From positions 70,858 through 134,857 of the forward strand of contig CACJUH010000001.1 in assembly GCA_902596545.1 (NCBI GenBank): DNA of 64,000 nucleotides, written 5' to 3'. Made by a program: the position numbers and the translations under genes. Positions 7,204-61,182 of the stretch are shown piece after piece (within the stretch, counting starts at the first letter, position 1; each line of letters opens with the position of its first letter). Below the pieces are notes generated by a model that was given only the letters and a program-made list of their open reading frames with translations, searched no databases and was not told where the DNA came from. Origin of the DNA: an uncultured Candidatus Actinomarina sp. (GTDB taxonomy: Bacteria; Actinomycetota; Acidimicrobiia; Actinomarinales; Actinomarinaceae).

Positions 7204-7568
7204 TACAGAAAGAGTCAAGACTAAAAGTTGCTGATAATTCAGGTGCAAAAGAAGTACTTTGTATAAAGGTTAAAGGTAGTTCCAGAATTAGATATGCAGG
7301 CTTAGGTGATGTTTTTGTAGCCACTGTAAAAGACGCTATTCCTGGAGGTCAAATTAAAAAAGGAGATATTGTCAACGCGGTAGTTGTCCGAACAAAAAAA
7401 GAAACTAGAAGAAAAGATGGTACATATATTAGATTTGACGAAAACGCCTGTGTCATTATTAACGAGCAAGATCAACCTAGGGGTACAAGAATTTTTGGTC
7501 CAGTTGGTCGTGAACTTAGAGAAAAAAGATTTATGAGAATAGTTTCATTAGCGCCGGAGGTTTTGTAA
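7200..7568 (+). CDS. rplN: 50S ribosomal protein L14
   Basis: 122 aa, [17 protein letters not shown] is the canonical L14 sequence. Confidence 0.95.
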
Positions 7569-7870
7569 TGAAAATTCAAAAAGGAGACTTAGTTAAAGTC
7601 ATATCTGGTAAAGATTCAGGAAAACAAGGAAAAGTCTTGCAAGCATTTCCAAAAAAAGGGACTGTTCTTGTTGAGGGTGTGAATATTACAAAGAAACATC
7701 AAAAACCACAAGGTCAAACAATGCAGGGCGGTGTAATCGACAAGAGTATGCCAATAGATGTCTCCAACGTTGCTTTAGTTGTCAAGAAAAAGTCAGGCAG
7801 AGTGAGTTATAAATTTGATAAAAATGGTAAGAAGTATCGAGTGCTAGCACAAACAGGTGATGAAGTATGA
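7568..7870 (+). CDS. rplX: 50S ribosomal protein L24
   Basis: 100 aa, KVKKGDxVxVIxGKDKGKxG-like motif. Confidence 0.92.
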   Translation: MKIQKGDLVKVISGKDSGKQGKVLQAFPKKGTVLVEGVNITKKHQKPQGQTMQGGVIDKSMPIDVSNVALVVKKKSGRVSYKFDKNGKKYRVLAQTGDEV

Positions 7871-12503: not shown

Positions 12504-13060
12504 GTGAATTAAATATATTTCTTGGACCGCCAGGTGCAGGAAAAGGAACTCAAGCTCTGAAAATTGCGTCTGAATTTGACCTAGCCCATATCTCAACGGG
12601 TGATATGTTGAGAGAACATGTAAGCAGTGGAACTGAACTAGGTAAAATAGCTAAAAGTCTTCTTGATGAAGGAAATTTAGTCCCTGACAAATTAGTTATA
12701 GAAATGCTTCTAGAGAGACTGAATAATGAAGACTGTAAGAATGGTGCAATCCTTGATGGCTTCCCCAGAACCTTACCCCAAGCTAAAAGCTTAGAGAGTT
12801 TAGATAAAGAATTTCCTGTTGCGAAAGTTTTTGTATTTGAAGTAAACGAAGATGAATTAATAAAAAGAATTTTACTAAGAGGGGAAATGACTGGCAGATC
12901 CGATGATACTGAAGATTCAATTAAGGTCAGGTTTGAAGTTTACAAAAAAGATACGCAGCCTTTAGTTGATTTTTATAATGAAAAAAACTTGGTAAATGTT
13001 ATAGATGCTGTTGGGGAAGTAGAGGATATTTACAACTCAATTTCTAGACACTTTAAATAA
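12500..13060 (+). CDS. adk: Adenylate kinase
   Basis: GPPGAGKGTQA P-loop, short-LID form, TTG start overlapping the secY stop. Confidence 0.9.
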   Translation: MSELNIFLGPPGAGKGTQALKIASEFDLAHISTGDMLREHVSSGTELGKIAKSLLDEGNLVPDKLVIEMLLERLNNEDCKNGAILDGFPRTLPQAKSLESLDKEFPVAKVFVFEVNEDELIKRILLRGEMTGRSDDTEDSIKVRFEVYKKDTQPLVDFYNEKNLVNVIDAVGEVEDIYNSISRHFK

Positions 13061-19111: not shown

Positions 19112-20419
19112 TTGAAGCAATATTTCGGTACTGATGGAATCCGAGGTATTCCAAACGAAACTCTGAATAAAGATTTAGTTTCAAAAATATTTTCTTCTGT
19201 AGAGTTACTTTTATCACCAAAATCCGTGGCAGTAATTTTAGATACAAGAAGTTCATCGTTAGAACTTCTAGATTGGATATGTGCTGGCTTAAGTGAAAAT
19301 GTCGAGGTTATTAATTATGGAGTGCTTCCTTCTGGTTCAATGCCTGTTCTTTTAAAAGAATTCAATCATGATCTTGGTGTAATTATTTCAGCATCTCATA
19401 ACCCAAGTGAATATAACGGTATTAAATTAATTGATCATAAAGGTTCAAAACTATCTGACAATCTTGAGATAGATATAGAAAAAGCTCTGTCTGATGTTAA
19501 TTTACCTAAAGAGTTTACAACTTCCAAAGAATCTCAAAATGGATATCAAGCCTACCTTGAGTTTTTAAATAATTTAATTAATTTTGATCTAGCTAAATTT
19601 AATGTATTGTTTGATACAGCTAATGGGTCTTCATATAAAATAATTGAAGATTTGTTTAAGTCAAAAAAAGCTAAATATAGAATAATTTCAAATAATCCAG
19701 ATGGAGAAAATATAAATTTAAATTGTGGAGCAACTCACCTCGATAACTTAAAGCAAAATAGTGGAAAAAATGAAATTGGTGCAGCGTTTGATGGTGATGC
19801 AGATCGACTCATTTTGCTAGATGAGGAAGGAAATATTTGTAATGGTGATGTGATTATATTATTAATTGCAAAGTATCTTGAGGCAATTAATCAGTTAAAC
19901 AATAAAGTGGTCGTATCAACAGTTATGGCAAATTACGGCTTTAAAAATTCAATGGATAAAAACAATTTTAAGAATATTGAAACTAAAGTAGGCGACAAAT
20001 ATGTTGCAGAAGCGATGGATGAAAACAATGCCTCAATAGGTGGGGAGCAATCTGGTCATATAATTATTTCTGAAGCATTACCAGTAGGTGATGGCCTTGT
20101 AACTTTAATATACTGCTTAAAAGCACTTGCATTTTTTGACACTACATTATCAAAATTTAAATCTGAAAATATTGAGGAATATCCGCAAAAATTAGTCAAT
20201 CTTGAATTGAGTACTATGCCTGAGGAAAACCAAATTAAAGAATTGAATAAAATAGCAAAAAAATTGACTGATAAATACGATTTAGATGGAAGGTACTTGA
20301 TTAGAAATTCAGGAACTGAGCCATTACTTAGAGTGCTAATTGAAGCTAAAGATAGTAATTCTGTAAATGAATTTAGTGATGAATTAATAAACAATATTAA
20401 AAACTATCTTTTTACTTAA
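19112..20419 (+). CDS. glmM: Phosphoglucosamine mutase
   Basis: MKQYFGTDGIRG N-terminus, SASHNPSEYNGIK phosphoserine loop, TTG start. Confidence 0.92.
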   Translation: MKQYFGTDGIRGIPNETLNKDLVSKIFSSVELLLSPKSVAVILDTRSSSLELLDWICAGLSENVEVINYGVLPSGSMPVLLKEFNHDLGVIISASHNPSEYNGIKLIDHKGSKLSDNLEIDIEKALSDVNLPKEFTTSKESQNGYQAYLEFLNNLINFDLAKFNVLFDTANGSSYKIIEDLFKSKKAKYRIISNNPDGENINLNCGATHLDNLKQNSGKNEIGAAFDGDADRLILLDEEGNICNGDVIILLIAKYLEAINQLNNKVVVSTVMANYGFKNSMDKNNFKNIETKVGDKYVAEAMDENNASIGGEQSGHIIISEALPVGDGLVTLIYCLKALAFFDTTLSKFKSENIEEYPQKLVNLELSTMPEENQIKELNKIAKKLTDKYDLDGRYLIRNSGTEPLLRVLIEAKDSNSVNEFSDELINNIKNYLFT

Positions 20420-20449
20420 TTTTTTTACTTATAATATATACAACGAGCA

Positions 20450-20592
20450 AATTAGCGCCAGGCCTTGAAAAAGGTGACGAGGTGGTATGTTATCGAAAAA
20501 TTCGGCGGATGCATACTCGGCTCTACGGTCGTAATAAATTGTTTAAAAACAGCAAGAAATTGTTGAACAGAGTCAATTTAACGTAGTCTTAA
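20450..20592 (+). ncRNA. glmS ribozyme (GlcN6P-dependent self-cleaving riboswitch) in the glmS 5' leader
   Basis: Conserved core blocks: A|GCGCCAG..., GACGAGG, GUUAUCGAA, UUCGGCGGAUGC, CGGCU, a GCCGUAA-like and a UUGAACAGAG P4-like segment. Expected cleavage site is between A20454 and G20455. Confidence 0.8.
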
Positions 20593-20622
20593 TTTCAACT
20601 TGCTCGTTGGAATGGAGAAAGT

Positions 20623-22419
20623 ATGTGTGGAATAATCGGGTATTCAGGCCCAAAAGAACCCTTACCAATTCTAATTAGTGGATTATCAAGATTAGAGTAC
20701 CGCGGATATGATTCTGCGGGAGTGGCTTTAATTGATGGAGATAACCTATCAATAGAAAAAAAAGAAGGAAAACTCAGTGTGCTTAAGGAGCATTTAGAAG
20801 GAACTTCAATAAAAGGAAACATTGGAATTGGTCATACAAGATGGGCAACACATGGAGTTCCGAGCGATGTTAATGCTCATCCTCATGCGGATAATGCTAA
20901 TGAATTTGCCATCATTCACAATGGAATTATTGAGAACTACGCTGAGTTAAAAGATGATTTAATTCAAGACAATTATAGCTTTATTTCGGAAACCGACACA
21001 GAGGTTGTTGCTGTTGAGTTGAGTAGAAAATGGAATGGTGAGTTGTTAGATACTGTTTTAGATGTAGCTAAATCACTTGATGGTACCTATGCTCTTGTTG
21101 TAACTTCAACAAAACAGCCAGGCACAATTGTAGCTGGAAGAATGATGAGTCCATTAGTTCTAGGTGTTGGTGAGGGGGAGGTCTTTTTAGCATCTGACTC
21201 TGCAGCAATTTTAGAATATACAAACAAAATGATATTTCTAGAGAATGGTGACTTTGTAGAAATTAATGATGGAAATTTTACTTTGTACGATATAGAAAAA
21301 AATGTAATAACAAGAGATATTCAAGTTATAGACTGGGAGGTCTCTGAAGCAGAAAAAGCTGGTCATGACCATTTCATGTATAAAGAAATACTTGAACAAG
21401 CAGAAGTAATTGAGAGAACAATTGCAGGAAGAATTGAAAAAAACTCAACAGAAATACCAATACATTTAGATAAAGCAAAAAAGTTTGAAAAGATATGGAT
21501 TGTTGCTTGCGGTACTGCTTATCATGCTGGTTTATTTGGTAAAGATTTATTTGAAAAAGTTCTTGGAGTTCCTGTAAGTGTTGAACTTGCTTCTGAGTTT
21601 AGATATCGAGAGCCAATAATAGGCAAAAATGATCTTGCTATTGTTATATCTCAGTCTGGTGAAACTATGGATACAATCGCAGCAACAGAATTACTAAAAG
21701 AAAATGGATCTCACGTATTAGCTTTAGTAAATGTTGTTGGGAGCTCACTTGCAAGAATGGCAGATAGTGTATTTTATCTTCACGTTGGTCCAGAAATTGG
21801 TGTGGCATCAACAAAAGCATACTTGGGAATGTTAGTTGGACAACTTTTGCTAGCAAAACATTGGGATTCAAATAATAAATTAGATACTTCACTTGAAGAG
21901 ATTAAGGCGCTTCCTTCTTTAATCGAAGAAGCGTTAAAGTGTGAAGATCAAGTAAAACAGATATCAAAACTAATTTATAAGAAGAAAGATATTTATTTTA
22001 TAGGTAGAGGCTTAGATTATGCTTTGGCTGCTGAAGGGGCATTAAAATTGAAAGAGATATCTTATCTTCATGCTGAAGCTCTTGCAGCAGGAGAACTTAA
22101 GCATGGAACACTTGCACTTATTGAAGAAGGAACTCCAGTGATAGTCACCGCTAGTCAAAGACATTTATTAGATAAAACAACTAGCAATGTACAAGAGGTA
22201 ATTGCTAGAGGAGCGTATGTTATAGCAGTTGGAGATGTTTCATCTAAGAAATTAAAAGACATATCAAATAATTACATTGCACTTCCTGAAACAAGTGAAA
22301 TGCTGTCGACTATTATATCGATTATCCCTCTACAGTTTATTGCTTATCATGTAGCTAATTTAAATGGCGAGTCAATTGACCAGCCCAGAAATTTAGCTAA
22401 ATCTGTAACTGTTGAATAA
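20623..22419 (+). CDS. glmS: Glutamine--fructose-6-phosphate aminotransferase
   Basis: 598 aa, MCGIIGY N-terminal nucleophile, two SIS domains. Confidence 0.95.
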   Translation: MCGIIGYSGPKEPLPILISGLSRLEYRGYDSAGVALIDGDNLSIEKKEGKLSVLKEHLEGTSIKGNIGIGHTRWATHGVPSDVNAHPHADNANEFAIIHNGIIENYAELKDDLIQDNYSFISETDTEVVAVELSRKWNGELLDTVLDVAKSLDGTYALVVTSTKQPGTIVAGRMMSPLVLGVGEGEVFLASDSAAILEYTNKMIFLENGDFVEINDGNFTLYDIEKNVITRDIQVIDWEVSEAEKAGHDHFMYKEILEQAEVIERTIAGRIEKNSTEIPIHLDKAKKFEKIWIVACGTAYHAGLFGKDLFEKVLGVPVSVELASEFRYREPIIGKNDLAIVISQSGETMDTIAATELLKENGSHVLALVNVVGSSLARMADSVFYLHVGPEIGVASTKAYLGMLVGQLLLAKHWDSNNKLDTSLEEIKALPSLIEEALKCEDQVKQISKLIYKKKDIYFIGRGLDYALAAEGALKLKEISYLHAEALAAGELKHGTLALIEEGTPVIVTASQRHLLDKTTSNVQEVIARGAYVIAVGDVSSKKLKDISNNYIALPETSEMLSTIISIIPLQFIAYHVANLNGESIDQPRNLAKSVTVE

Positions 22420-22438
22420 ATAAAGGAGCTTGCTTGTC

Positions 22439-22597
22439 ATGGATAAAAAAATTAAAAATACCGGAAGCATGATTGGTGTTGGTACAGCTATAGGAGCAGC
22501 AGTTTTTGCTGCTACAAACGAACCTACCTGGTTAGCTGTAGGTGTTGCATTAGGAGCAGCACTCAGTTGGAGAAAACCACAAAATAAAAATGAATAA
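22439..22597 (+). CDS. Small hydrophobic peptide, 52 aa, 2-TM hairpin
   Basis: AAGGAG ribosome-binding site 7 nt upstream. MDKKIKNTGSMIGVGTAIGAAVFAATNEPTWLAVGVALGAALSWRKPQNKNE. Not in the ORF track because it is under 60 aa. Confidence 0.45.
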   Translation: MDKKIKNTGSMIGVGTAIGAAVFAATNEPTWLAVGVALGAALSWRKPQNKNE

Positions 22598-22763
22598 TGA
22601 ATCAACGAATTCTAATAATGCTGGAAATTTGATTGGTATTTGGATAGCAATGGGAGTTGCAGTTTTTGGATGGCTTTTTGTAAATTTATCTCCTTGGATA
22701 GCAGCAGGTTTTGCAATTAGTGCAGTGCTTACATACAAAATACCAAAAGGATTTAGATCTTAA
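22590..22763 (+). CDS. Small hydrophobic peptide, 57 aa, paralog of the preceding one
   Basis: MNNESTNSNNAGNLIGIWIAMGVAVFGWLFVNLSPWIAAGFAISAVLTYKIPKGFRS. Shares the pattern IG.G.A.G.AVF...W.A.G.A...A.L..+.P with the upstream peptide. Overlaps it by 8 nt. Confidence 0.45.
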   Translation: MNNESTNSNNAGNLIGIWIAMGVAVFGWLFVNLSPWIAAGFAISAVLTYKIPKGFRS

Positions 22764-22804
22764 AAAATTAACTTTTATAATTTGCAATTCTATTAGACAT
22801 TAGA

Positions 22805-23893
22805 ATGAAACAGATGGACAGAGGATACATTTTCGTAAATAAATCTCACTTAGTCAGCAATTTGAATTACTTAAGTGACCTTACAAAAAAAGAGTTGTGT
22901 CTGGTTGTGAAAGCAAATGCCTATGGACATGGTATTCAATGGACTGTAAAAACAGCTGAGGAGGCTGGAATTAGTTGGTTTGCTGTAGCATCTGTAAATG
23001 AAGCAATTCAAGTTAGGAATATTTCAAAAGGTGCCAGGATACTTTTATTAGCCGAACCTTCAAAATCTCAAATAAAAAATGTTTTAAAAAACGAAATAGA
23101 TTTGACCGTTTACAATGAAGAATTTATTGATGAATTAATTAATGTCGAAGGAAACCTCAATGTGCACTTAAAAGTTGACACTGGCATGCATCGCATAGGT
23201 TGTGAACCAGAAAATTTTGATAAATTAATGGAAAAAATTCAAACATCATCATTAAATTTAGTTGGAATTTGCACACATTTTCCAACTGCTGATACTGATG
23301 AACAATACACACAAAATGCTTTAAATTTGTTTAAAGCATTAATTAGTGGACACGATACTGATGGCTTATTACTACATGTAGACAATTCAGCCTCTAGTTT
23401 TTACAATTCTGATGATTCATTCAACATGACAAGAATTGGTTTAGCAGCATATGGTACACAAATTTCAATAAAAAATTATGATCACAATTTGATGCCAACA
23501 ATGGAAATTAAAACAAGAATCTCCAACTTACAAAAAAGAAATAAAGGTGACGCTGTTTCCTATGGAAAATCTTTTGAGCTAGAAAGAGATTCGACAATTG
23601 CAACAGCTCCAATTGGTTATGGTGATGGATACCCTTGGAACTCTTTTCCTGATGGTCATGTTTTAGTAAATAACAAAATTTGTAAATTGATAGGCAGGGT
23701 AACTATGGACCAAATTTTAATTGATGTAACTGATATAAAGGTCAAAGTTGATGATGAAGTAACTGTCCTAGGTAAATCTGAAAATGGACAGCATGAAATA
23801 ACAGTTACTGACATTGCACAATGGAATAAAACTATTGAATGGGAAATATTAACTAATATGTCAAGAAGGCTTGAGAGAATAGAAATTGAGTAA
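22805..23893 (+). CDS. alr: Alanine racemase
   Basis: 362 aa, PLP-lysine motif VVKANAYGHG. Confidence 0.92.
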   Translation: MKQMDRGYIFVNKSHLVSNLNYLSDLTKKELCLVVKANAYGHGIQWTVKTAEEAGISWFAVASVNEAIQVRNISKGARILLLAEPSKSQIKNVLKNEIDLTVYNEEFIDELINVEGNLNVHLKVDTGMHRIGCEPENFDKLMEKIQTSSLNLVGICTHFPTADTDEQYTQNALNLFKALISGHDTDGLLLHVDNSASSFYNSDDSFNMTRIGLAAYGTQISIKNYDHNLMPTMEIKTRISNLQKRNKGDAVSYGKSFELERDSTIATAPIGYGDGYPWNSFPDGHVLVNNKICKLIGRVTMDQILIDVTDIKVKVDDEVTVLGKSENGQHEITVTDIAQWNKTIEWEILTNMSRRLERIEIE

Positions 23894-48832: not shown

Positions 48833-50974
48833 ATGTCATTGGATTCTAATTTACCGGAAGACTGGAAAAAATTACTAAACCCAAGTCAGATTCAAGCCAT
48901 AGAAACAATTAATGGACCTGTATTAATAATGGCAGGAGCAGGTTCAGGTAAAACTAGAGTATTGACTCATAGGTATGCCCATTTAGTAAAACACCATAAT
49001 GTAGACGTTGAGCAAATATTGGCTATTACATTTACAAATAAAGCAGCAGAAGAAATGAAATCAAGAATAAGTAAGCTTCTTAATTTAAAAATTTCACCAA
49101 AGTGGATATCAACTTTCCATAGTTTGTGTGTAAAAATTTTAAGAATCCATGGAGATAAGATAGGTTACAAAAGCAACTTTACTATTTACGATCAATCTGA
49201 TTCAAATAAAGTGATTAGGAATTGTATGTCTGAAAACAATGTTGACCTTAAACAATATTCACCAAAACGTTTCCAGGCACATATATCTAATCTTAAGAAC
49301 AGCATGATAAGCCCTGGGGAGGCACTAGAGAATGCAGAATCTTTTTTTGAAGTAAAAGTTGCCGAAATTTATTCAAGCTATGAAAAAAAATTAATAATTG
49401 CTAATTCAATGGATTTTGATGATCTTTTAATTAAAACTGTAGAACTTTTACAAACAAATGAAAGCATTTTGAAGTTTTGGTCTAATAAATTTCAATTCAT
49501 CATGGTTGATGAATACCAAGATACAAATTTTGTACAATACAAATTAGTTGAGCTTCTTGGTTCAAATAATAAAAATGTTTGTGTAGTTGGAGACTCGGAT
49601 CAAAGTATCTATGCATTTAGGGGTGCGGATATTAGAAATATTATTGAATTTGAAAAAGATTTTAGTAACGCAACAGTTATTCAACTAGATAAAAACTACA
49701 GATCTTCTAAAAAGATTCTTAATTTAGCTAACTCAGTCATATCTAATAATCCACGAAAAATTGAAAAAAATCTTTGGACTGATAACGAAGATGGTTTAGA
49801 TATTTCATCATTTAGATTTAGATCTGAAAAAGATGAAGCAAGATGGGTTGCAGAAGAAGTTAAAAACCTAATAGATTCATCCAAAGAGAATGAGGTTGCA
49901 ATTTTTTATAGAACCAATAGCCAATCACGTTTATTTGAGGAAGAACTAAGAATGTTAAATATTAATTATAAAGTCATTGGCAGTGTGAGATTTTATGACA
50001 GAAAAGAGATTAAAGATATAATCTCATACCTACAATTTTTAGTTAATGATAGTGATACAGTTGCATTTGAAAGAATTGTAAATGTTCCAAGGCGAGGAAT
50101 AGGAGAGTCTACTGTAAAAAAAATAAGGATATATTTAAATGAAACAGGAAAGTCTATATTTGAAGCACTGGAATCAATAGAGGAGATTAAAAATATTTCT
50201 CCACGAATTAAAGGAAGTCTCTCGGAATTTAAAGATTTAATTACTGAACTAAAGTCCTATTCGCTTCAAGGTCCCTCGAAAACAATCCAAAACGTTTTGG
50301 AGCTTACAGGATATAAAATGAGTTTGATTAAAGAAGGTACACTAGAGTCACAAATGCGCATAGAAAATATTGAAGAACTTCTAAATTCCGCATTTAGTTT
50401 TGAGAATTTGTATGAAGAAGAAATTGATGAACCTTATGGAATGCTCAGAGATTACTTAGAATCCATTGCCCTATTTTCTGAAACTGATAAATTAGAAGAT
50501 GCTGATAGAGTTTTGTTGATGACTCTACATAACGCAAAAGGCTTGGAGTTTCCATATGTATTTATGACTGGAATGGAAGAAAATTTATTTCCGCATGAAA
50601 GAAGTTCTCAAGGAGATAACTCTGAAATTGAGGAAGAAAGAAGACTTTGTTATGTTGGAATAACAAGAGCTGAAAAAAAGCTTTATTTAACTCATTCGTG
50701 GTCAAGGACACTTTGGGGTGGCACAGTTTATAATTTACCAAGCCGTTTTCTAGAAGAGGGTTCTAGTCATTTTGATACTGTAGATTTTTCACTTGATACT
50801 AAACAAAAAGACTCTACTCAGCTTGAAGTTGGTACAGGTCAAAAAATAATTCATGAAAAATATGGAGAAGGGCTTGTTTTAGAAGTTCAGGGAAATGAAA
50901 TAACTGTTCAATTTAATGATGATATTGGAGTAAAGTATCTTGATGTAGAATGGGCACCCATAAAATTTCAATAA
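48833..50974 (+). CDS. pcrA: ATP-dependent DNA helicase PcrA/UvrD
   Basis: 713 aa, AGAGSGKTRVLTHR Walker A, SF1 helicase motifs. Confidence 0.92.
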   Translation: MSLDSNLPEDWKKLLNPSQIQAIETINGPVLIMAGAGSGKTRVLTHRYAHLVKHHNVDVEQILAITFTNKAAEEMKSRISKLLNLKISPKWISTFHSLCVKILRIHGDKIGYKSNFTIYDQSDSNKVIRNCMSENNVDLKQYSPKRFQAHISNLKNSMISPGEALENAESFFEVKVAEIYSSYEKKLIIANSMDFDDLLIKTVELLQTNESILKFWSNKFQFIMVDEYQDTNFVQYKLVELLGSNNKNVCVVGDSDQSIYAFRGADIRNIIEFEKDFSNATVIQLDKNYRSSKKILNLANSVISNNPRKIEKNLWTDNEDGLDISSFRFRSEKDEARWVAEEVKNLIDSSKENEVAIFYRTNSQSRLFEEELRMLNINYKVIGSVRFYDRKEIKDIISYLQFLVNDSDTVAFERIVNVPRRGIGESTVKKIRIYLNETGKSIFEALESIEEIKNISPRIKGSLSEFKDLITELKSYSLQGPSKTIQNVLELTGYKMSLIKEGTLESQMRIENIEELLNSAFSFENLYEEEIDEPYGMLRDYLESIALFSETDKLEDADRVLLMTLHNAKGLEFPYVFMTGMEENLFPHERSSQGDNSEIEEERRLCYVGITRAEKKLYLTHSWSRTLWGGTVYNLPSRFLEEGSSHFDTVDFSLDTKQKDSTQLEVGTGQKIIHEKYGEGLVLEVQGNEITVQFNDDIGVKYLDVEWAPIKFQ

Positions 50975-59363: not shown

Positions 59364-59645
59364 GTGGAGCAATCAATAGTAGAAGAGTTAATCGGCGGAA
59401 TGCCATCATGGACAGAAGAGGCAAATTGTAAAGGGGCAGATGCAGATTTATTTTTTCCGGAAAGAGGAGCTTCTACTAGAAAAGCTAAAGCAATTTGTAG
59501 AGCATGCACCGTCCAAGACCAATGTTTAGAGTATGCAGTAGAGAACTCTGAAAAATTCGGAATTTGGGGTGGTCTATCAGAACGTGAGCGTAGAAGAATT
59601 AAAAGACAACGTGCTGCAGAATTTGATATTAGAGACGTAGGTTAG
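59364..59645 (+). CDS. whiB: WhiB-family (Wbl) Fe-S transcriptional regulator
   Basis: 93 aa, four Cys (C-x24-C-x2-C-x5-C), GIWGG turn, basic C-terminus, GTG start. The family is restricted to Actinobacteria. Confidence 0.9.
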   Translation: MEQSIVEELIGGMPSWTEEANCKGADADLFFPERGASTRKAKAICRACTVQDQCLEYAVENSEKFGIWGGLSERERRRIKRQRAAEFDIRDVG

Positions 59646-60097
59646 ATACTAAAGCTTTCAGAATATTCGCTGAAGTCTCTTTCAACCCCGATTTCATCAC
59701 TTTTTATTATTTCAGTTATAGTGTTTTCTTCGTCTGTTATATATGTATATCTCAAAGAAATACCAGCACCATCATGAAAGCAACCAAATTTTTTGGCTAC
59801 TTCACCATGAGGCCAAAAGTCTGACAAAATTGGGAATTCAATATTATGGTGTGCAGCCCACGACCTATTAGTAGGACTTGCACCAACTGTTATTAGTATT
59901 GTATTTGTATCTTCTTTCAAAAAAGACTCTTGGTAGTCTCTTAATTCGCATATTTCCTTATCACAAACACTACTAAATGGGAATGGCATAAAAACAAACA
60001 TTGTTTTTTGACCCAAGAAATCTTTGTCGCTGTGTTTTGTTTTGTCATAGTTGAATAATTCAAATTCTGGTATTTTATCTCCAATATTTAATGACAT
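59642..60097 (-). CDS. AhpE-like peroxiredoxin (AhpC/TSA family)
   Basis: 151 aa, FMPFPFSSVCDKEICELRD peroxidatic Cys motif, FPILSDFWPHG. Confidence 0.85.
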   Translation of the reverse strand: MSLNIGDKIPEFELFNYDKTKHSDKDFLGQKTMFVFMPFPFSSVCDKEICELRDYQESFLKEDTNTILITVGASPTNRSWAAHHNIEFPILSDFWPHGEVAKKFGCFHDGAGISLRYTYITDEENTITEIIKSDEIGVERDFSEYSESFSI

Positions 60098-60141: not shown

Positions 60142-61182
60142 TTAAATAGGTGGCAAAGAAGTTCTAGCTGCCCAAGAAATTGGATCTTCTAATTCATGAA
60201 CTGATGGAATAAGGTTCATATCTGAAATAATTTCATTTAGGCCAAGTTCATTTTTGGAATCTTCAAGGAATGAGATAAAAGAATCGGATCTTTCATCGTA
60301 TTTAGAAATTTTTAATTCGAAATCACTTCCAGGTCCTTGATTGGCAACGAGGCCTAGGTCCATAACTAGATCAATCACACTCGGTTCTATAAAGTCAATT
60401 AATTTTTTTGCAGAGTGCTTGATTACTGATCTATAAAAACTAAGAGGTGCAAAAATAACATCAAGCATGGAGTCAATATCAAAGTTGTTCAATTCAGGTA
60501 TGTTATTCATGAGGTCTTGAGGATTAGAAAAATTACTTGGGTCAAAATTTGGTTCAATATCTTTTATGTTTGCTAACAGTTCTTCGTTACTTTTTTTCAT
60601 TTGTTTTATCAAGTAATCGAATGGAGCTGTGTGCTCACCAAGAGTCAGAGTTATATATTCTAGAAGCATCAATGCAATTGTTGCCTCTTTTTCATCGATC
60701 GAAAACTGACTTATTCTCAAATCAAAATTATTTTTATTTATCGCAAGAGCACTATTTCTTGGAAGAACAATTCCATAATGACTAAGACCCCAAGTGTTCT
60801 TGCTCAAAAATCCAGCAATGTTACCTAGTTGCATTCCTATTAATGATGATTGAGCACCTCCAATTCCTGCAGGTAAACCCTCAAACATTTTAAGCTCGGA
60901 AAAATCAAAATGTTTAATTGAATTTAGAAACCAATTTCCATATTTTTTTGAATCCATTATTGAAACTTCTAGTGGCGTGTACTCATTTTTTGTTGAAGAT
61001 TCTTGACTCAATTCTATAACTCTGAATATTTCTTGATAATTCAAGTCAGAATTAGAAAGTAATCTATCTTCTTCGATATCTTTATTTATATGGTTATTAA
61101 TTTGTTCAGCCAGTTGCCAATTTACATCGCCGTCATCATTATTGAAAAGATTAAATAATTGGGAAAAAAGATCGTCAGACAT
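60142..61182 (-). CDS. Hypothetical protein, upstream partner of htrA
   Basis: 346 aa, acidic, no HExxH or other catalytic motif seen. The start of its coding sequence overlaps the htrA stop by 1 nt. Confidence 0.45.
   Translation of the reverse strand: MSDDLFSQLFNLFNNDDGDVNWQLAEQINNHINKDIEEDRLLSNSDLNYQEIFRVIELSQESSTKNEYTPLEVSIMDSKKYGNWFLNSIKHFDFSELKMFEGLPAGIGGAQSSLIGMQLGNIAGFLSKNTWGLSHYGIVLPRNSALAINKNNFDLRISQFSIDEKEATIALMLLEYITLTLGEHTAPFDYLIKQMKKSNEELLANIKDIEPNFDPSNFSNPQDLMNNIPELNNFDIDSMLDVIFAPLSFYRSVIKHSAKKLIDFIEPSVIDLVMDLGLVANQGPGSDFELKISKYDERSDSFISFLEDSKNELGLNEIISDMNLIPSVHELEDPISWAARTSLPPI

Follow-up and report, generated by a model that had tools for sequence, protein, structure and literature searches.

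The glmS ribozyme of Candidatus Actinomarina, its place in the Acidimicrobiia, and a possible translational role for its leader

The glmM-glmS locus of an uncultured Candidatus Actinomarina sp. raises the question of whether the 203-nt spacer between the two genes (20420-20622) holds a genuine glmS ribozyme, an RNA class best known from Firmicutes, and, if so, what its self-cleavage does to the glmS message and how the RNA came to be there. The locus lies in a stretch of 64,000 nucleotides of contig CACJUH010000001.1 (assembly GCA_902596545.1), which is here called the window and whose numbering is used throughout. The features that frame the question are the following:

20443-20590, plus strand: glmS ribozyme (Rfam RF00234), full length, covariance-model score 86.8 bits against a gathering score of 37
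20454-20455, plus strand: predicted self-cleavage site between A(-1) and G(+1), aligned with the conserved A↓GCGCC of the family (the arrow marks the cut)
19112-20419, plus strand: glmM (phosphoglucosamine mutase), stop codon TAA at 20417-20419, the upstream neighbour of the ribozyme
20623-22419, plus strand: glmS (glutamine--fructose-6-phosphate transaminase), the regulated gene; 757 bits to NF001484 and 748 bits to TIGR01135 (NCBIfam), both above cutoff

The first part of the question can be answered plainly: nucleotides 20443-20590 are confirmed as a genuine and ordinary glmS ribozyme, a member of the known family. The match to RF00234 (E = 1.3e-18) covers model positions 1-167 of 167, its 3' end lies 32 nt from the glmS start codon (20623), and the cleavage-site and core consensus (A↓GCGCC, GACGAGG, UUAUCGA and UCGGCGGAUG) is found in full. 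The original prediction, made from the letters of the window, had placed a glmS ribozyme in the glmS leader from a list of motifs and had proposed a covariance-model search, which now yields a full-length match between glmM and glmS at a score far over the gathering value. The motifs stand where it had put them, i.e., A↓GCGCCAG at 20454-61, GACGAGG at 20476-82, GUUAUCGAA at 20489-97, UUCGGCGGAUGC at 20501-12, CGGCU at 20518-22 and UUGAACAGAG at 20563-72, with the exception of its "GCCGUAA", which reads GUCGUAA (20528-34). Crystal-structure pairings were mapped from the B. subtilis numbering, in which P2.1 pairs C38 with G55 and G39 with C54, and A56 also pairs with U61 (PMC11602151), and the window sequence accommodates all ten helices with standard pairs:

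20456-20507, plus strand: core double pseudoknot, mapped from the PMC11602151 pairings
C20456-C20459 with G20504-G20507, plus strand: P2.2, nucleotides +2 to +5 with GGCG, standard pairs
20462-66 with 20471-75, plus strand: P1, closed by a GAAA loop
C20478-A20480 with U20493-G20495, plus strand: P2.1, CGA with UCG, standard pairs
A20496 with U20502, plus strand: single pair within the core
20484-89 with 20512-17, plus strand: P2, GGUAUG with CAUACU, an AU-rich form of the consensus GGAGG/CCUCC
20518-20586, plus strand: peripheral domain (P3, P3.1, P4, P4.1)
20518-21 with 20528-31, plus strand: P3
20523-27 with 20582-86, plus strand: P3.1 pseudoknot, CUACG with CGUAG
20535-41 with 20574-80, plus strand: P4
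20550-55 with 20560-65, plus strand: P4.1, capped by a GAAA tetraloop of the GNRA type

The pseudoknot pairings that the original prediction had singled out thus form, and the assignment stands. It is borne out by the whole order. Retrieval of 46 species-level genomes of the Actinomarinales (= the OCS155 cluster) gave 44 loci with upstream sequence, and in 44/44 of them the spacing of the core motifs from the start codon is constant; in distant outgroups the motifs were found at this offset in 0/6. AGCGCC and GACGAGG are present in all 44 loci; TTATCGA is varied in L014 and CGGCGGATG in L012. The Rfam model matched 12/12 diverse Actinomarinales loci at 80-93 bits. Thirty-seven leaders were aligned, and pairing statistics were computed on the 36 distinct sequences among them: 97% of the cells of the pseudoknotted structure are paired, against 29-40% in slid controls, and double-sided changes occur at ten pairs, the observed values being reached by 0/500 shuffles. 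These changes include one pair of P3.1 that alternates between G-C and A-U (21 vs 15 sequences), three doubly changed pairs apiece in P4 and P4.1, and one pair of P2 that goes from A-U to G-C on both sides, P2 being paired in 100% of cells. P2.1, P2.2 and P3 are invariant; P2.1 and P2.2 are 100% paired in the 36 sequences and, being invariant, show no covariation, as is the case for the core double-pseudoknot helices in the glmS family as a whole (PMC2258182).

The ribozymes of B. subtilis, B. anthracis and Thermoanaerobacter tengcongensis have the same cleavage-site sequence, core nucleotides and P2.1/P2.2 double pseudoknot, the same P3.1 pseudoknot, the same P4/P4.1 with a GNRA loop and the same position in the glmS 5' untranslated region. 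That of B. subtilis presumably also lies immediately 3' of glmM. With respect to the glmS consensus, the Actinomarina form differs in that P1, which has 19 nt more in the consensus, is a 5-bp hairpin with a GAAA loop and P2 is AU-rich. By this likeness it is very probably a ribozyme activated by glucosamine-6-phosphate (GlcN6P) which, cut between A20454 and G20455, inactivates the glmS mRNA and so provides negative feedback; the GlcN6P dependence and the destabilisation of the mRNA would be those of the family to which it belongs. Accumulated GlcN6P would bind in the pocket preformed by the double-pseudoknot core and act as cleavage cofactor, cleavage would leave a 5'-hydroxyl on the glmS message, and the message would then be inactivated, with less GlcN6P synthesis as the outcome. 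In B. subtilis the 5'-hydroxyl product is degraded by RNase J1 (PMC3997798; PMC10810187); to be set against the same course of events here is that the window proteins that were scanned include no RNase J.

What the cut does to the message may depend on what flanks the ribozyme, and here the locus departs from the B. subtilis type: the cleavage site is preceded by a leader of only ~13-14 nt, as judged from the probable transcription start, the ribozyme is enclosed by a conserved helix which we call P0, and a hairpin that pairs with the Shine-Dalgarno (SD) sequence follows on the 3' side. Three conserved blocks outside the Rfam model were seen in the 37-leader alignment, namely a -10 box, the P0 5' strand and a downstream block, and they supply the following parts:

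20430-20435, plus strand: candidate -10 box TATAAT of a glmS-specific transcript, 11 nt after the glmM stop codon
20441-20450, plus strand: P0 5' strand (CAACGAGCAA) within the leader that precedes the cleavage site; perfect 10-bp complement of 20600-20609
20587-20599, plus strand: anti-SD strand (UCUUAAUUUCAAC), 5' half of the SD-burying hairpin, pairing with 20606-20618
20600-20609, plus strand: P0 3' strand (UUGCUCGUUG), of which 20600-20605 make up the alternative hairpin's loop and 20606-20609 also belong to that hairpin's stem
20606-20618, plus strand: 3' half of the SD hairpin (GUUGGAAUGGAGA), holding the Shine-Dalgarno GGAG at 20614-20617

The -10 box, TATA(A/C)T, is invariant in the 37 leaders amid variable surroundings and lies 5-7 nt ahead of the P0 5' strand. 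From its sequence glmS appears to have a promoter of its own just past the glmM stop codon, and the position of the box places the probable transcription start at ~20441-20444, hence the short leader of ~13-14 nt before the cleavage site. In a consensus scan of 19900-22900 no site resembling an intrinsic terminator came up in the glmM-glmS interval or directly 3' of glmS, so that read-through of an rplM-rpsI-glmM transcript into the ribozyme is possible beside the candidate glmS promoter.

P0 encloses the whole ribozyme and is present in both the minimum free energy (MFE) structure and the centroid computed by RNAfold for 20440-20625. Its 10-bp run has p = 0.012 against shuffles (longest run) and its duplex energy z = -5.2; the longest-run statistic was added because GC-rich leaders leave duplex-energy z-scores with little power. 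In the alignment the 5' block (20441-50) has the consensus (U/C)AACGAGC(A). Five of the inner eight pairs are invariant and three show one-sided variants (U-G/C-G, A-U/G-U), with a single non-standard cell overall; the ninth pair has one compensatory change, A-U to U-A in L003 and L034, and three non-standard cells, while the outermost pair is unpaired in half of the sequences. The change in L003 and L034 supports P0 specifically because the changed site lies in the loop of the hairpin. It should be noted that ACGAG occurs twice, in the leader (20443-20447, within AACGAGC) and in the catalytic core (20477-20481, within GACGAGG), so that the core strand of P2.1 offers GCUCGUU of the P0 3' strand a second possible partner; such a pairing is a possible misfold or third alternative state.

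On the other side of the ribozyme, the block that runs to the SD is almost invariant, unlike the other linkers. It reads AUUU(C/U)AAC-(U/C)UGCUCGUUGGAAUGGAGA over 20592-20618, where it leads into the SD, and TTGGAATGGAG is kept in 37/37 leaders save for one substitution in L028. Across the clade the SD hairpin is paired in 94.9% of its cells, a share that falls to 42-55% with a slid partner strand; variation in the anti-SD strand is mainly C/U opposite G, and a few sequences (L003, L034) lack the outer pairs. RNAfold places the hairpin in both the MFE structure and the centroid of the cleaved RNA, with the SD buried. The hexaloop of the hairpin, UUGCUC, falls within the P0 3' strand, and GUUG (20606-09) belongs to both structures; P0 and the SD hairpin are mutually exclusive because these four nucleotides are shared and P0 takes up the hairpin loop.

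RNAfold cannot represent the pseudoknotted core and its answer to P0 versus hairpin depends on the boundaries chosen, for which reason the two were compared with the native ribozyme helices held fixed. Under this constraint P0 is the stabler in the window (-15.5 vs -10.2 kcal/mol at 37 C; -18.8 vs -15.7 at 20 C) and in 37/37 sequences, with means of -13.3 vs -8.1 kcal/mol. Cofolding gave the following mean probabilities of an unpaired SD:

3' tail alone: 0.22
3' tail with the native leader: 0.57
3' tail with shuffled leaders: 0.25

From these computations we tentatively propose, with rather more doubt than confidence, that cleavage acts on translation as well: by detaching the leader it would let the anti-SD hairpin close and so turn translation off. 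In the intact RNA, P0 would hold the pre-SD segment and keep the anti-SD hairpin from forming, leaving the SD accessible; the leader would in effect be an anti-anti-SD in cis. After cleavage P0 would be a short intermolecular duplex, the hairpin would displace the 14-nt leader fragment, and translation would stop. This shut-off would be additional to exonucleolytic decay or, in streamlined genomes, may take its place, and the arrangement may be found in Actinomarinales, in some other Acidimicrobiia and in a few low-GC lineages.

The last suggestion comes from other glmS ribozymes. Among 89 diverse examples the SD is mostly predicted to be open whatever the leader, and strong leader-specific unmasking was seen only in L152 (Acidimicrobiia-like; 0.03 to 0.97), L070/L090, L167 and L067, all of which have the three-part arrangement of leader, anti-SD and SD in unrelated sequences. 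L070/L090, L167 and L067 are low-GC metagenome contigs in which part of the leader ahead of the cleavage site pairs with the anti-SD; in L067 the leader segment AGAGAC pairs with GUCUCU, which otherwise pairs with UUGGAGG, and in L090 a promoter of the form TTGACC-17-TATAAT lies upstream of the leader. In high-GC Acidimicrobiia-like loci, pairing of the leader with the pre-SD segment is clear in L174 (11 bp, p < 0.002), suggestive in L173/L069, L178, L175, L176 and L152, and absent by the longest-run test in L177, L130 and L096.

Several results weigh against the proposed switch. RNAfold of the intact RNA over 20441-20645, unlike that over 20440-20625, has the hairpin and not P0 in the MFE structure, so that the two states must lie near each other in energy when pseudoknots are left out of the model. 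In equilibrium cofolding the SD stays closed despite the leader in about one third of the clade. Covariation in P0 amounts to a single compensatory event in two related sequences, and no pair of the SD hairpin is changed on both sides, since the 3' strand of the hairpin hardly varies. Outside the Actinomarinales, P0-like pairing is uneven, the combined p for the ten high-GC loci being 0.0066, or 0.086 without L174.

A plainer reading, to which we give not far short of an even chance, is that the element amounts to no more than a canonical glmS ribozyme, P0 being a structural clamp and the downstream hairpin a constitutive damper of translation unrelated to cleavage. Such a clamp could insulate the folding of the ribozyme from the flanking mRNA, or could bury the 5'-triphosphate end and thereby stabilise the uncleaved message, and the probable transcription start does put P0 at the extreme 5' end. 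Flank complementarity with p <= 0.01 was found in 8/63 other glmS ribozymes, in unrelated sequences, and so clamps recur; the complementarity in L085 was dismissed, as it resembles a hairpin inside the upstream leader itself. The presence of the hairpin in the RNAfold structure of the intact RNA fits a damper, and for natural glmS ribozymes the searched literature has the RNase J1-mediated decay model only. Against a clamp and a damper that work separately stands the overlap of the two structures: sharing 20606-09, and with P0 consuming the hairpin loop, they cannot be independent. Nor would such elements lead one to expect a ribozyme-to-SD block that is almost invariant where other linkers are not, an effect of the leader on SD exposure that is specific to its sequence (0.57 vs 0.25 when shuffled), or the recurrence of leader, anti-SD and SD in four other lineages with unrelated sequences.

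A further reading would deny that the flanks are pairing partners at all. On this view the 5' block would owe its conservation to a role as promoter, as discriminator or as the first stretch to be transcribed, the 3' block to one as a standby site or an extended ribosome-binding site, and the complementarity of the two would be a coincidence. Most positions of P0 and the hairpin never vary, so that conservation alone cannot tell pairing from other constraints, and the 5' block does come directly after the conserved -10 box. We nevertheless hold this to be improbable in view of the perfect 10-bp complement and its p and z values, the inner nine P0 pairs, which mostly keep pairing when changed (four non-standard cells in all), and the analogous pairings formed by different sequences in L174 and other relatives.

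The switch proposed here has counterparts in two kinds of known system. In E. coli, GlmZ, GlmY and RapZ follow the same logic, in that a base-pairing RNA activates glmS and cleavage removes the activating segment (PMC3997798); but there the activator is a small RNA in trans, which RNase E cuts with the aid of an adaptor protein, and there is no ribozyme, whereas in the model for Actinomarina the activator would be the leader in cis and the nuclease the ribozyme itself, so that this is an analogy and not homology. Engineered hammerhead and twister switches that embed the SD likewise change the pairing strand of the ribosome-binding site by self-cleavage (PMC5052635), but those are synthetic. 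In the literature searched, ribozyme-controlled SD access was found in such engineered switches only, and no natural glmS ribozyme with a translational SD platform was found.

The remaining part of the question, how the ribozyme came to be in this genome, was addressed by comparison beyond the order. Published collections of the glmS family also include some actinobacterial members. In RegPrecise the glmS motif is present in Bacillales, Staphylococcus, Clostridiaceae, Chloroflexi and Deinococcus-Thermus and absent from 8 Corynebacteriaceae and 9 Mycobacteriaceae genomes (PMC3766115 supplement). A homologue search with the window GlmS gave Actinomarinales proteins only, at >=80% identity; outgroups were obtained by scanning metagenomes with a generic pattern of the core, followed by a second GlmS search started from L069. 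The scan returned many high-GC ribozyme loci, and the gene order rplM-rpsI-glmM-ribozyme-glmS was found in L069, L087 (without rplM), L096, L112 and L130, on contigs with a GC content of 0.61-0.69, where RplM is 52-63% identical to that of the window. The nearest named relatives of the L069 GlmS are NCBI proteins labelled "[Acidimicrobiia bacterium]" (67-88% identity), and L069, itself Acidimicrobiia-like, carries the closest ribozyme-linked GlmS outside the Actinomarinales (51%).

Six high-GC loci from metagenome-assembled genomes (MAGs) of Acidimicrobiia/Actinobacteria were then chosen by GlmS similarity alone, blind to the RNA, and a full-length Rfam glmS ribozyme was present in 6/6 (84-98 bits). 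The layout truA-rplM-rpsI-glmM-gap-glmS is shared by five of the six, L177 having rplM-rpsI-glmM without truA. With these six included, 10/10 high-GC Acidimicrobiia-like loci matched the Rfam model (80-99 bits), nine of them, with L130 counted apart, in the order rplM-rpsI-glmM-ribozyme-glmS; glmM lies directly upstream in about ten further ribozyme loci of varied GC content, without rplM-rpsI. Compared with the Actinomarina ribozyme, those of the high-GC Acidimicrobiia (L069, L173-L178, L152 and others) have the same synteny, RF00234 scores of 80-99 bits and a P1 that is short too, and several combine leader-to-pre-SD pairing with an anti-SD of the GGUCUCC type beside the SD; they differ in their unrelated flank sequences, their GC content (0.61-0.69) and in that only some have P0-like pairing. 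The glmS ribozyme is thus normal for the class Acidimicrobiia and has been kept, by vertical inheritance, in the streamlined, low-GC Actinomarinales, a conclusion drawn because the six loci chosen by GlmS all have it and share the gene order. The original prediction had called its occurrence taxonomically notable, which holds with regard to the Mycobacteriaceae and Corynebacteriaceae that lack it, but not within the class, where 44/44 Actinomarinales and 6/6 high-GC MAG loci carry it. The alternative, that ribozyme and glmS were recently acquired together from a low-GC Gram-positive, could draw on the low GC of the Actinomarina genome, on the Firmicutes in which the class is best known and on its absence from those two families, but it is very unlikely indeed, recent import from Firmicutes being contradicted by the truA-rplM-rpsI-glmM-ribozyme-glmS order on high-GC contigs with similar RplM and by the nearest GlmS relatives, which bear Acidimicrobiia labels, L069 and not a low-GC locus being the closest outside the order.

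Other loci place the same RNA before different genes. In L053, L084, L113, L117, L125, L058 and L091, matches to the glmS model above threshold (61-88 bits) lie upstream of genes that are not glmS, with the ribozyme at 7526-7676 (minus strand) in L053 and at 12842-12993 (minus strand) in L084. The next gene is nagB-like in L053, L084, L058 and L091, and the L053 protein matches TIGR00502 (GlcN6P deaminase) at 369 bits against a cutoff of 237; L084 has the order ribozyme-nagB-acetyltransferase-glmM. In L113, L117 and L125 the ribozyme is followed by a GlmU-like acetyltransferase of ~220 aa and then by glmM. The nagB-type loci suggest that a deaminase running towards biosynthesis may stand in for GlmS and be controlled by the same RNA.

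Within the window the local gene order is truA-rplM-rpsI-glmM-[ribozyme]-glmS-alr-tsaE-tsaB. The glmM product has TIGR01455 (NCBIfam) as its best match, full length at 362 bits, which is yet under the equivalog cutoff of 447.55. The tight fit of the ribozyme between glmM and glmS that the original prediction remarked on is real, and is a placement common to the high-GC relatives too; its low-GC actinobacterium-like genome is that of Candidatus Actinomarina, since the window GlmS is 99% identical to that of Candidatus Actinomarina (Acidimicrobiia) single-cell genomes and the window averages ~33% GC; and the WhiB and AhpE hallmarks it had named correspond to matches to WhiB and to an AhpC/TSA peroxiredoxin. 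The WhiB gene lies at 59364-59645 (plus strand; PF02467, 89.6 bits in Pfam; no NCBIfam model matches) and the peroxiredoxin gene at 59642-60097 (minus strand; 151 aa, 89.8 bits in Pfam), the two being convergent with a 4-nt overlap of their 3' ends. An open reading frame of 346 aa at 60142-61182 (minus strand) has no NCBIfam match and a borderline match to Pfam Zincin_2 (28.3 bits, cutoff 25). One other Rfam match was obtained in the window, n00280 (RF03531, "C. difficile sRNA included into helicase gene") at 50603-50704 (plus strand; 69.4 bits, gathering score 65.2); it falls wholly within the PcrA helicase coding sequence (48833-50974; TIGR01073, 844 bits) and is most likely conserved coding sequence and not an RNA gene.

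These results add a well-supported glmS ribozyme for one of the most abundant actinobacterial groups of the surface ocean and show the ribozyme to be general in the Acidimicrobiia, which corrects the view of an essentially Firmicutes RNA that is missing from Actinobacteria. If the proposed switch is true, the glmS ribozyme would have a second output, translational shut-off through loss of an activator strand in cis, and thereby a new route from ribozyme cleavage to repression where the machinery for RNA decay is unlike the Bacillus one; the glmS ribozyme would then not be free of an expression platform, contrary to textbooks, and would be a natural counterpart of the engineered ribozyme-SD switches.

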